Made by a program: the position numbers and the translations under genes
Origin: a virus
Taxonomy: Duplodnaviria; Caudoviricetes
Direction: 5' to 3' (one strand)
IMG/VR virus record: IMGVR_UViG_3300042567_001420
Length of the DNA stretch: 64,000 nt
Shown here: piece after piece, positions 3,112 through 63,752 of the stretch
How positions within the stretch are numbered: the stretch's first letter is position 1
Layout of the letters: every line of letters starts with the position of its first letter
Notes under the pieces: generated by a model
Database searches by the model: none
Told to the model about the DNA's origin: nothing
What the model saw: the letters and a program-made list of their open reading frames with translations, nothing else

Positions 3112-4163
3112 GCTTCATTATAATGTTGTGCTTCTACATATAAAGTCTTTAGCAAAGTCTTTAACCGCTCTTTGTCAGAATCTGTTTCAACGCTATCTAC
3201 ATAATCAGATAACAATGTCATAGTATCTTCTAGATCAATTGAATCATCCAATGCACTAGCTTCAAACTCTGAAAAGTCTTCTATAATTTTTAATTCTATA
3301 GGATTGTTTGTATAAATAGCTTCTACAAATTTATCGAATTTTAAAATATCTTTTTTGTTAACTACTACGAGTTTAACATACTTGTTAGTAAATATTGACT
3401 TGTCAATTAGATTAGGATCTGTCTTTTCATCGTCATAGTAATGTTTAATAAACATATTAAACGGATTCTGAATAAAATCAAACAAACCAGTATCAGTATC
3501 GAAGATGTAAAATCCTTTAGGATCGCCTTCATCGTTCCAAGCCAGTTCGTATGGAGTACCCAAATATACGATGTTATCTTCGTGCGACCTAGTATGATAA
3601 TGTCCACTGAAAACAGTATTATAGGTTTTCAGCATTGCTCGATCCATACCATCATGACTATCAATACCTTTCATCATTTGAAATCCTGATAGCTCAAAAT
3701 GACCGGCACAAAAATCGGATGCGGATTTAGTTATAAAGTCTGCAATGTCATTTTCATTTTCTTTACAGATCCAAGGAATAATGTCCATTTGAGCATTGTC
3801 AAATTTTAACGTTGTAGGTTCTTGAATGATAGTAATGTTATCGTAATCTTGTAATAACAAATCTGGAGAATTTACTTTTAGGCTTTCTTTCCAGAATATA
3901 TCGTGATTGCCAATTAAGGCAATTAGATCCATTTTCTTTTCAACTATCACATCAAAGAAATATCGTCGTGCCTCAGCAAGAGACATAAAGTTAATATATT
4001 TTCTTCTATCAAATAGATCACCTAGTTGCAATATAGTTTTTATATTGTTTTGTTCTAGATATGGAAAAAGAATCTCGCTATAAAATTTCTCATAATATGC
4101 ATGGAATGCTTTAGAATCATTCCTAACACCAAAATGAGTATCGCCCAATAAACAAAGTTTCAT
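3108..4163 (-). CDS. gp47: recombination endonuclease nuclease subunit (Mre11/SbcD-like)
   Basis: GDTHFG, GDLFD, GNHD and GHYH metallophosphoesterase motifs; adjacent to gp46. Confidence 0.97.
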   Translation of the reverse strand: MKLCLLGDTHFGVRNDSKAFHAYYEKFYSEILFPYLEQNNIKTILQLGDLFDRRKYINFMSLAEARRYFFDVIVEKKMDLIALIGNHDIFWKESLKVNSPDLLLQDYDNITIIQEPTTLKFDNAQMDIIPWICKENENDIADFITKSASDFCAGHFELSGFQMMKGIDSHDGMDRAMLKTYNTVFSGHYHTRSHEDNIVYLGTPYELAWNDEGDPKGFYIFDTDTGLFDFIQNPFNMFIKHYYDDEKTDPNLIDKSIFTNKYVKLVVVNKKDILKFDKFVEAIYTNNPIELKIIEDFSEFEASALDDSIDLEDTMTLLSDYVDSVETDSDKERLKTLLKTLYVEAQHYNEA

Positions 4164-60712: not shown

Positions 60713-60978
60713 AGGGGTAATTTACCACGCGGCCTCATATAGTTTTGCTCTTCTGCCTCATTTTGAATCTTATCTTTTAGTGATTGATTAATTAGATTGG
60801 CAACGGCCGCAACATCAATATCAATTTCATTGCAGTATTGTATTACTGCATCCATATATCCTATACTTTCAGATAAGACCTTTTCTTCAATATACAAAGA
60901 GAATTCATTTTGTGATCTGAATCTTTTGGTAATAATTAAACTGTCGGTCAATACTTCATTTAAATTAAGTTCTGTCAT
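60709..60978 (-). CDS. gp33: late promoter co-activator
   Basis: YMDAVIQYC, SLKDKIQNEAE; adjacent to gp59. Confidence 0.9.
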   Translation of the reverse strand: MTELNLNEVLTDSLIITKRFRSQNEFSLYIEEKVLSESIGYMDAVIQYCNEIDIDVAAVANLINQSLKDKIQNEAEEQNYMRPRGKLPL

Positions 60979-61649
60979 TCGATCTCTGGAAATAAAATTT
61001 CATCCATAAAGGTTCTAAACACAGTTTGATCTATGCCAAGGGTAGTCATCATTGCTGGGGTGTGGGGATTCATCTTTTGAAATTTACAATAGTTGTTGTA
61101 TCTCTCTTTATATGACTCTCCGGTTTTTTCTACTTGTCCTACATTATAAAGGTAAACGTGCAAGCTTTCAATAGCTAGATCGGACAATTTGTCCAATTCT
61201 TCTTCTTCGGATATATTGCCCGCCGCAATCATTCCGGGACTAAAAATTTGAGTTGCCCACTCAGGCAATATTCTTGGTTTATTCCATTCTAATTTAGATG
61301 AACGATCAATAAACCAAGTATACAAATCACAATTTCCGTTTTTAGAAAAATCATGGAATGCACCTGTAATTTTGCTAGCTCCGCACACTACATCAAATCC
61401 AAAGATTGGAGTAGGATCATCAAACTCTGGAAAAATTGTCATGTGCATAACCCAGATCTTTTTTGCTTCGCGCGCATCAACAATTTCCACATGGGCTCTG
61501 CGATAATTCTTCGAAGTAAAAATATAATTTTCCCAAAGATATCCTTTTCCTTGTTCTGCGGTATATTTTAATTCATCATCTGTTGTTTGTTCCAATGTCT
61601 CAAGAATATTTTGAGACAACGGAATCATTTTATCCCATACTAAAGACAT
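60975..61649 (-). CDS. ferredoxin-dependent bilin reductase (PcyA/PcyX-like)
   Basis: YRRAHVE, VMHMTIFP, PIFGFD, FHDFS, LPEWA.IFS, QKMNPHT; next to heme oxygenase. Confidence 0.85.
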   Translation of the reverse strand: MSLVWDKMIPLSQNILETLEQTTDDELKYTAEQGKGYLWENYIFTSKNYRRAHVEIVDAREAKKIWVMHMTIFPEFDDPTPIFGFDVVCGASKITGAFHDFSKNGNCDLYTWFIDRSSKLEWNKPRILPEWATQIFSPGMIAAGNISEEEELDKLSDLAIESLHVYLYNVGQVEKTGESYKERYNNYCKFQKMNPHTPAMMTTLGIDQTVFRTFMDEILFPEIE

Positions 61650-62176
61650 TAGTTAAATTCCTTAACAATTTGTATGTTATAATCAAATCCTACACAGGCT
61701 TCTTTGCCCATATCGTCTTTTAATTTAGCTCGGAACTTTTCTGTTAATTCTTCTTTATTTTCAAACTGAAACATTTTGCCTGAACCAGGAACAAGCTTAG
61801 CAAAAATTTGGCCGCCATTTAAATCACCTAAGTATCTTACATACATATGTGCAATTAAATCATCATGCTTAGTAATGTCCATGATATACTGAATATACTT
61901 TAATGTAGATTCTTTAATCGTATATGTTTTATCTGGTACAGCTAATTCCTGAAAATCTTCAAAGATTGCTTTAGATCTATAAAGGCCAGGGATACCTTCA
62001 TACGCACCTAATTTTGGACCTGCAATGTTTTCCATTGCATGATATACTAAGTATAGTTGATAGAGGTATTCCGCATACTTATTTTTATCAACTCTCTTCT
62101 GAAAGATTTCTTTAATAAATGATTGCGTTTCCGCTTCTTTATGTTTTTCGTGTGTTTGTTCTTTTAATGTAGACAT
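61649..62176 (-). CDS. hemO: heme oxygenase
   Basis: LKEQTHEKHKEAE, HMYVRYLGDLNGGQ, EACVGFDYN. Start moved to MSTL. Confidence 0.92.
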   Translation of the reverse strand: MSTLKEQTHEKHKEAETQSFIKEIFQKRVDKNKYAEYLYQLYLVYHAMENIAGPKLGAYEGIPGLYRSKAIFEDFQELAVPDKTYTIKESTLKYIQYIMDITKHDDLIAHMYVRYLGDLNGGQIFAKLVPGSGKMFQFENKEELTEKFRAKLKDDMGKEACVGFDYNIQIVKEFN

Positions 62177-62180
62177 AATT

Positions 62181-62492
62181 TTATTTAAATAATATAAGTG
62201 CAAGTAGAGTTGAGTGAATAATAAAACCTGCACCGATTGTTACAACGTGAAGAATATCTTTAAGTATTACTGCTCTAACAAACAGCATAGATAATCCCGC
62301 CCAAATAAACAAAATAAGATCAACCGGTGGCATCTTATCTGATAGTCCAGACATTACGGAAATCATTGTTGGCACAGTTGCGGCATGAATAAGAACAATT
62401 CCAATCCATGAAATCGTTTCTGCAGTAGCAACCGTTAATGTTGTTTTGCAATAATTAATAACATCTTGTAGTGTGGGGTATTTAAAGTTCAT
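62181..62492 (-). CDS. small integral membrane protein
   Basis: Three hydrophobic segments. Confidence 0.65.
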   Translation of the reverse strand: MNFKYPTLQDVINYCKTTLTVATAETISWIGIVLIHAATVPTMISVMSGLSDKMPPVDLILFIWAGLSMLFVRAVILKDILHVVTIGAGFIIHSTLLALILFK

Positions 62493-63063: not shown

Positions 63064-63336
63064 TTACTTTTTACTAATAGTCTTTATATTATCTTGAGGA
63101 ATGTTAGAAACAAAGCCATTCAATACATGAGCCTTTGCAATAATATCAGTTTCTGAGGGGTAGGCTGGAAAGCCTGGGTGATCCGGAGGTGTTTGGCCAG
63201 CATGTTTAGCTGTCTCTACCTTAGTAGACCAATCGTTAGATATTACTTCACGTTTACCGTAGTAATCGTCACCAAGCATATCTTTGGCCATTTTTAAAAG
63301 TTCTAATCTAATTTCGAACGGTGTCATATTACTCAT
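63064..63336 (-). CDS. conserved hypothetical phage protein
   Basis: TPFEIRLELLKMAK...YPSETDII..A..LNGFV; GGAG RBS. Confidence 0.7.
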   Translation of the reverse strand: MSNMTPFEIRLELLKMAKDMLGDDYYGKREVISNDWSTKVETAKHAGQTPPDHPGFPAYPSETDIIAKAHVLNGFVSNIPQDNIKTISKK

Positions 63337-63369
63337 TTTAATCTCCTTGTGTGTATGAGTGTTTGTAAA

Positions 63370-63718
63370 ATGGTTAGTTATTCTGTTACGAGGAAACTAA
63401 CCGAAACCCTAGCTACCTTATTTAGGCGGCAATGCGAAACTGTGAGTCGTTTGCGTTTACTTTGTTTTAGTTTTAACATCTACTCTGATGTGCTGTCCAC
63501 TCTGGTACTCTTTACCCTGTCGAATCTATTTCAGGCCCATCATAAAGACTTTTCCAACGATTGTGTGCTTCGAAATAACTAATCCAAACACACCCTTCGC
63601 ATCCTTTACCGCAACAAGAATTTGGCTTTTGCGGTTCGGGCGGTAAATCTTTATGGTGGACCTGGCGGGATTCGCACCCGCGTCCAGAATCTGTTTCTCT
63701 TTGCTTCATACAGCAATA
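63370..63718 (-). ncRNA. ssrA: circularly permuted (two-piece) tmRNA
   Basis: Acceptor piece GGAC-GCGGG-TGCGAAT-CCCGC-CAGGTCC-A-CCA (CCA ends at 63654), then a 115-nt intervening segment, then coding piece GGGCCTG-AAATAGATTCGAC (G1 at 63538). 7-bp acceptor stem with G3.U70. Tag ANDSQFRIAA* at 63454-63422. Outer ends approximate. Confidence 0.93.
63512..63709 (-). CDS. small CCxxGCxxCVW (oxidoreductase-like N-terminal domain) protein overlapping the tmRNA
   Basis: LPPEPQKPNSCCGKGCEGCVWISYFEAHNRW encoded by the intervening segment. Confidence 0.5.
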   Translation of the reverse strand: MKQRETDSGRGCESRQVHHKDLPPEPQKPNSCCGKGCEGCVWISYFEAHNRWKSLYDGPEIDSTG

Positions 63719-63723
63719 ACTCT

Positions 63724-63752
63724 ATTATAACGCCTTTTGTTTAAGAAGTCAA
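63724..63752 (-). promoter_or_regulatory. sigma70-type promoter for the tmRNA precursor
   Basis: TTGACT-N17-TATAAT. Confidence 0.88.

Follow-up and report, generated by a model that had tools for sequence, protein, structure and literature searches.

A circularly permuted two-piece tmRNA gene lies on the minus strand (about 63717-63366) within the final 700 bases of the window, as we call the whole 64,000-nucleotide stretch of phage DNA analyzed here, and a 65-codon reading frame runs from its acceptor piece through the entire intervening segment into its coding piece. We think it likely that this is a working phage tmRNA gene in which a small protein gene has taken over the intervening segment and is read from an AUG of the tmRNA itself. 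Judged by comparison with related loci, the precursor is very probably both a messenger and a pre-tmRNA, as a preliminary description of the locus had proposed, and this proposal is now supported by a domain match, by the conservation of the frame and its AUG, and by a bias toward synonymous change. What appears to be new here is a known protein domain with a start codon borrowed from tmRNA.

The tmRNA locus and the frame that crosses it

The source is an uncultured T4-like myophage from a lake. Among the products of the window are a major head protein of the gp23 type, tail sheath and baseplate proteins, gp32, gp59, a heme oxygenase and a bilin reductase. The genes for the heme oxygenase and the ferredoxin-dependent bilin reductase adjoin those for gp59 and gp32 (60975-62233, minus strand), and no photosynthesis genes are in view in this phage.

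ARAGORN places a permuted tmRNA with the tag ANDSQFRIAA at 63331-63746 on the minus strand, to which all window features described below belong. The locus exceeds both Rfam thresholds, matching RF04321 (tmRNA_permuted) with 108.3 bits (gathering score 47) and RF01850 (beta_tmRNA) with 100.3 bits (gathering score 84), the latter alignment also taking in the promoter region. The sigma-70-type promoter (63724-63752; TTGACT-17 nt-TATAAT) agrees with the consensus at 11 of 12 positions, and transcription is predicted to start near 63717. According to the Rfam alignments and ARAGORN, the acceptor piece precedes the coding piece, which is the permuted order, and comprises the 5' strand of helix P2, the T-arm, the 3' strand of the acceptor stem and an encoded CCA (63654-63717, with the CCA at 63656-63654). 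It is followed by an intervening segment of 115 nt (63539-63653), bounded by the end of the CCA and the start of GGGCCUG in the Rfam alignment, which is predicted to be removed as the two tmRNA pieces mature. The coding piece (63366-63538) contains the 5' acceptor strand GGGCCUG, the tag frame ANDSQFRIAA with its stop (63422-63454, from ARAGORN) and a terminator-like 3' hairpin (63403-63367). Pairing of GGGCCUG with CAGGUCC results in a tRNA-Ala-like acceptor stem with a G3-U pair. The order of the pieces, the T-arm, the G3:U pair, the encoded CCA and the upstream promoter are as in the permuted two-piece tmRNAs of RF01850 and RF04321, and the tag frame likewise begins with GCA and ends with AA. 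A phage copy of a permuted tmRNA of the betaproteobacterial type is known from the OM43 phage Melnitz (PMC9004378). The tags of the relatives read ANDSQFALAA, ANDSKFALAA or ANDEKYALAA. Compared with ANDSQFALAA in the closest relatives, the window tag shows a compensated frameshift: one base was inserted and another lost close by, so that Ala-Leu became Arg-Ile and the terminal AA was retained. Directly 3' of the tmRNA terminator lies a 90-residue ORF (63064-63336) that has a strong AAGGAG Shine-Dalgarno (SD) sequence and no Pfam match, and whose position is conserved in two of the three groups of relatives introduced below (A and C).

The frame itself (P0001; 63512-63709, 65 codons and a TAA in the list of ORFs and their translations) follows the course given in the preliminary description, through the T-arm and the CCA, across the 115-nt segment and into the coding piece. 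Its codons 1-19 coincide with the acceptor piece (T-arm, acceptor strand and CCA) and codons 19-58 with the intervening segment, while codons 58-65 overlap the beginning of the coding piece, as does the stop, which is situated 24-26 nt into it. About 80 nt or ~27 codons of the frame, including the start codon, are therefore located within mature tmRNA sequence. The ATG lies 14 nt from the end of the -10 box and is the first possible start, because an in-frame TAG (63724-63722) occurs five codons 5' of it; the gene upstream reads in another frame. No SD sequence precedes this ATG, whereas the neighboring genes have AAGGAG, and the spacer of the window is free of ATG, GTG, TTG and stop codons in the P0001 frame. 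Residues 22-54 (63548-63646; motif CCGKGCEGCVW) had been assigned to an oxidoreductase-like domain in the preliminary description, and the HMM search indeed returned Pfam PF09791 (Oxidored-like) with 41.7 bits (cutoff 24; E=9.4e-11) over profile positions 7-39 of 46. The protein has C32, C33, C37 and C40, which are invariant in an alignment of 78 homologues, as well as G34, G36, V41 and W42, which are conserved in at least 90% of them.

Selection on the protein and on the RNA

In IMG/VR we found 46 related loci with 24 distinct spacer-embedded copies of the gene, which together with the window give 25 distinct Oxidored-type sequences. The embedded copies form a window-like group A, a group B with 65-74% amino acid identity, and a group C with 66-72% identity and a two-codon deletion. 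The frame is retained in all 24 of them, throughout the three groups, and indels occur in multiples of three only (spacers of 115 vs. 109 nt). Stops are absent from the P0001 frame in the 25 sequences, whereas the two remaining forward frames contain 30 and 90. Parsimony changes at the three codon positions amount to 18/24/69 in the core (codons 4-32). Pairwise pS is 0.5-0.9, near saturation between groups, against a pN of 0.1-0.25. On a tree restricted to the embedded copies, 63 synonymous and 50 nonsynonymous changes were counted with 19.6% of the sites being synonymous (binomial p=2e-17), and omega was about 0.2. These substitution counts show purifying selection at the protein level on the spacer frame while it is embedded, and by the same counts a constraint at the RNA level cannot yield the observed synonymous bias. 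Conservation of the frame and a bias toward synonymous changes in the intervening segment were among the checks named in the preliminary description, and both came out in its favor, with an open frame and an in-frame AUG in all of the diverged relatives.

The tmRNA has likewise been maintained. Its T-stem exists in six versions among the ORF-bearing tmRNA genes (GCGGG/CCCGC in the window), each of them Watson-Crick paired by way of compensatory changes, and relatives with a spacer ORF have typical tags and Rfam scores of 78-124 bits. The combination of synonymous bias and compensatory T-stem changes thus indicates that selection acts on the protein as well as on the tmRNA. Moreover, the compensatory changes in the T-stem freely alter the N-terminal residues of the protein, and in the AlphaFold model the pLDDT is 82-90 over about residues 21-50 and below 50 for residues 1-13, so the sequence of the N-terminal tail appears to be set by the needs of the RNA, and that of the domain by those of the protein. 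A few copies look degenerate: in L030 and L031 the family-invariant Cys33 is replaced by Tyr, and in L034 (3054-3111) an in-frame deletion removes all four cysteines.

The intervening segment is closed by the 11-bp inverted repeat that had been noticed before, with one G-U among the 11 pairs. Its 5' arm (63645-63655), which also encodes His-Lys-Asp-Leu, extends the acceptor stem in the minimum-free-energy fold (z = -5.0), and its 3' arm (63541-63551), which also encodes Lys-Ser-Leu-Tyr-Asp, is supported by the fold and by covariation. Across 124 distinct spacers of the tmRNA clade this closing helix covaries. In 123 of the distinct spacers, positions 2-9 can be scored as paired with the tail in 85-100% of cases and position 1 in 78%; many pair types are used, and shifted pairing registers mostly give 24-67%.

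With regard to the wider distribution of the gene, blastn and tblastn searches of GenBank phages found no relative of the spacer or the peptide, and a scan of bacterial species genomes for the peptide pattern gave no match. When a 16-nt acceptor/CCA pattern was used on bacterial genomes, the matches listed were mostly chance matches and included one permuted-tmRNA-like locus (MAG contig L222). A word-indexed protein search returned just eight proteins, every one of them from tmRNA loci.

Spacer genes and free-standing copies

Altogether 124 distinct spacers of the tmRNA clade were gathered, 25 of the Oxidored type and 99 others. Among the non-Oxidored spacers, 67 are at least 82 nt long, and 35 of these contain an SD-led ORF that has 20 or more codons and starts no more than 30 nt from the CCA. 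These ORFs have their own AUG and an SD sequence that is usually UAAGGA right behind the CCA, and the shortest of their products are membrane peptides of 23 residues, the longest a protein of 133 residues. To judge by these ORFs, the spacer of this clade of phage tmRNAs is a slot for genes in general, and the pre-tmRNA would serve as a messenger elsewhere in the clade too. The earlier statement that no described example is known needs to be qualified: our literature search brought up no article about protein-coding genes within the intervening segments of tmRNAs, but 35 spacers of the same clade carry SD-led ORFs. In a tmRNA database paper from 2025, a tRNA-Ala gene and a repeat element are the only elements reported within intervening segments (PMC11915505). 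The Oxidored-type spacers resemble the SD-led ones in that a small protein under selection occupies a stem-closed slot between the CCA and the coding piece. However, SD-led genes bring their own SD and AUG and often a stop, so that their spacer could still act as a messenger after excision, whereas the Oxidored-type frame takes its AUG from the acceptor piece and its stop from the coding piece.

Several of the other spacers deserve mention. Those of L040 (2176-2577), L159 and L130 are 342-415 nt long and encode proteins of 101-133 residues with a common N-terminus MRI-x-E-x-TES; about 2 kb upstream of its tmRNA, the phage contig L040 also carries an Rfam COG2908 RNA motif (159-203, 70.9 bits). 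A cysteine-rich ORF of 86-87 residues is found in the 284-nt spacers of L077 and L136, that is, in two diverged tmRNAs, with many synonymous differences. The membrane-peptide spacer of L072 has the same first 13 nt and the same tail (encoding ...SLFDGPDLDSTGQQVN) as the Oxidored spacers of group B (L008/L097), which suggests that cassettes can be exchanged between the conserved arms of the closing helix.

In related phages the Oxidored-like gene also occurs with its own AUG, mostly right at the 5' end of the tmRNA. In L047 and L048 the stop of the gene is located within GCUGUAUGAAG at the start of the acceptor piece, and in L051, a 559-nt contig without an Rfam tmRNA, within the equivalent CUGUAUGAAG ahead of a T-arm-like sequence. 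The gene of L033 reads into the T-arm in another frame, that of L052 reads into a decayed acceptor piece, those of L049 and L050 end about 50 nt 5' of the tmRNA, and the free-standing copies of L053 and L054 have no adjoining tmRNA. Free-standing versions possess just 1-8 residues ahead of the P-x-P motif. In L047 the gene overlaps the stop of a thioredoxin gene (ATGA), and the gene order from a PD-(D/E)XK nuclease to the tmRNA is the same as in the window. The L047 gene and the embedded L015 copy share 93% nucleotide identity (pS 0.29, pN 0.01) and are closer to each other than the embedded groups are mutually, which indicates that the gene moved between free-standing and embedded positions within the lineage. 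L033 (3172-3330; 2995-3183) combines the upstream Oxidored-like gene with a 38-codon hydrophobic ORF in the spacer (3213-3329) and thus has two small genes around one tmRNA. In addition, TAAATA, which resembles the core of a T4 late promoter, is situated exactly 4 nt before the SD-less AUG of two free-standing copies (L033:2979-2997; L049, just upstream of 527), and with this spacing leaderless transcripts would result.

Start codon, fate of the precursor and known systems

None of the 24 distinct Oxidored-type spacers contains an in-frame ATG, GTG or TTG, and no near-cognate in-frame codon is common to groups A, B and C. On the other hand, the AUG at position -56 and a frame open to the CCA are present in 25 of 25 Oxidored-type sequences and in all nine distinct acceptor variants. 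Of the other tmRNAs of the clade, just 30 out of 99 share these features, corresponding to 23 out of 71 variants of the acceptor piece (Fisher p=3e-11, not corrected for kinship), and in 21 a stop stands at codon 3 or 4. One acceptor variant found with an Oxidored spacer also accompanies other spacers. In L297, L298 and L299, which represent two distinct versions, the position of the AUG is taken by ACG, and an in-frame AUG, likewise without an SD, is located 21 stop-free codons upstream. This extension of the ORF (L297:1501-1758, L298:1428-1691, L299:236-499) crosses an insert of ~150 nt with a GGAGA/TCTCC hairpin. The degenerate copy of L034, in which the cysteine motif is deleted and ACG replaces ATG, was considered as a correlated loss of domain and start and rejected, as ACG is common to the intact-domain lineage that has the upstream AUG.

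In each of the three groups, most copies have a -10-like element that ends 12-15 nt 5' of the AUG (L015 is without a clear one), and a leader of less than 10 nt is therefore predicted; group C has in addition an extended -10 promoter ~45 nt upstream, which would give a longer, structured leader. Because the spacers are startless, the AUG and its frame are kept, the ACG lineage has an upstream AUG, and the -10 elements are suitably spaced, we favor initiation at the 5'-proximal AUG of the precursor. A leader of 8 nt is not truly leaderless and may allow only poor initiation. Contigs from RNA libraries show a summed depth that is far higher on the two tmRNA pieces than on the spacer, although these libraries represent mixed organisms with possible DNA carry-over. 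The only RNA-library record that bridges the junction between spacer and coding piece (X2 record 9) is from a relative with 93% identity and may be DNA, and another (X1 record 6) covers the full spacer with fewer than 31 letters per flank and so does not bridge; expression is not evident from these contigs.

We envisage that the primary transcript would arise from the strong promoter, probably starting ~8 nt ahead of the AUG, and that ribosomes would initiate at this 5'-proximal, SD-less codon. Translation via the T-arm, the 3' acceptor strand and the CCA would yield ~20 codons of a disordered tail fixed by RNA constraints; the ribosome would next cross the spacer, which holds the complete four-cysteine domain, and end ~24 nt into the coding piece. 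On this path the T-arm, the acceptor stem and the closing helix must be unwound, and translation would most plausibly be co-transcriptional, the nascent 5' end being loaded before the coding piece is made and the helices are closed. The messenger function would end, and the tmRNA would result, once RNase P had cut at 63538/63539 and the 3' end had been trimmed to the CCA, and a ribosome trapped on the cut precursor would constitute a non-stop complex. Since the excised spacer is without start and stop, the protein would be made only from the unprocessed precursor, and cleavage of the precursor would act as a switch between messenger and tmRNA.

Among other explanations, it seems unlikely that the domain is translated from elsewhere, be it from a non-canonical codon early in the spacer, through coupling to an upstream reading frame or re-initiation after it, or from a processed form. 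The missing SD at the tmRNA AUG would fit such a start, as would the SD-like UAAGG right behind the CCA of group C, with an in-frame AUA 11 nt further on, the AAGGA at the head of the L097 spacer, and the 1-8 residues with which free-standing versions manage ahead of the P-x-P motif. However, groups A, B and C have no near-cognate codon in common, the excised spacer has no stop codon, and such a start would leave unexplained why 25 of 25 sequences keep the AUG and the open frame and why the ACG lineage has a replacement upstream. Coupling and re-initiation are at odds with the different frame of the upstream gene and with the TAG that closes the frame five codons before the AUG. Less probable still is that the act of translation matters more than its product, ribosome passage timing or chaperoning the folding and processing of the tmRNA and the peptide being a by-product. 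The ORF does span both strands of the acceptor stem and of the closing helix, so that ribosomes would delay their pairing, and many unrelated ORFs occupy the same slot; yet the conservation of amino acids goes beyond an open frame, the four Cys, G, G, V and W match a family found across cellular life, omega is about 0.2, and related phages keep the gene free-standing.

Finally, the segment could be a captured fragment that is no longer translated and owes its conservation to RNA constraint or recent descent, a reading that we regard as largely refuted and very improbable. The well-folding spacer (z = -5.0) and the few damaged copies (L030/31, L034) agree with it, but the concentration of changes at third positions, the excess of synonymous changes (p=2e-17), the retention of the protein between groups whose synonymous sites are near saturation, and the absence of in-frame stops against 30 and 90 in the other frames all contradict it. 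We return to the preferred reading, a working tmRNA gene with a protein frame read from its own AUG. With respect to its consequences we can put forward, quite tentatively and with considerable doubt, that the messenger and tmRNA fates are mutually exclusive and the protein is made only before cleavage, that the tmRNA of the locus rescues and tags ribosomes on its own cleaved precursor and the output is thus self-limited, and that the pairing of Oxidored-like gene and tmRNA reflects a functional link to ribosome rescue or redox control rather than mere shared transcription. This pairing is seen with the gene upstream in at least five arrangements and embedded in three groups.

The segments of tmRNA precursors are usually seen as throw-away material and the genes annotated as non-coding. 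In contrast to described permuted tmRNAs, whose segments are discarded spacers, the window segment encodes a domain in frame with the flanking mature tmRNA, which here doubles as codons, and gene callers and RNA annotators each miss some of the coding capacity of phages. Dual-function RNAs such as SgrS/SgrT, RNAIII/hld and SR1/SR1P combine a non-coding function with a protein from one transcript. In these RNAs both parts coexist in the mature molecule, whereas maturation at the window locus would destroy the messenger. The nearest published analogue is the S23p ORF in the stem-closed intervening sequences of 23S rRNA in Coxiella and Leptospira (PMC4990558), where a protein ORF is likewise nested in a stem-closed segment cut from the precursor of a stable RNA. 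The S23p ORF is confined to the element that is cut out, and doubt is reported as to whether its product is made in vivo (PMC4990558), while the ORF of the window overlaps the mature RNA and has strong comparative evidence for selection on the protein. If translation occurs as proposed, the locus would be a clear example from nature of a messenger that is lost when a stable RNA matures, and a simple system in which to study how ribosomes compete with RNA-processing enzymes while the transcript is still nascent.

As to the protein, which the preliminary description took for a small Fe-S or Zn protein, our guess is a small redox or metal-binding module, possibly with a thioredoxin or a flavoprotein/Fe-S partner. 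A redox role is suggested by the thioredoxin gene that neighbors the free-standing copy in L047; the genes around two bacterial Oxidored-like proteins offered no clue to function, and a Foldseek comparison of the AlphaFold model with the PDB gave no match. The domain has the pattern P-x-P...CC-x-x-GC-x-x-CVW...Y...W with all invariant residues of the PF09791 family, which includes human OXLD1 and chain o of PDB entry 7ZM7, but unlike other members it is a minimal domain of 33 residues between tails that appear to be dictated by RNA. This compactness, together with the thioredoxin neighbor in one relative, offers a handle on the function of a widespread family. One solved structure contains the domain, in chain o of 7ZM7 (7zm7_o; Chaetomium thermophilum complex I), for which phmmer gives E=1e-6, and this chain probably corresponds to the subunit that PMC9699679 describes at the NDUFV3 site.
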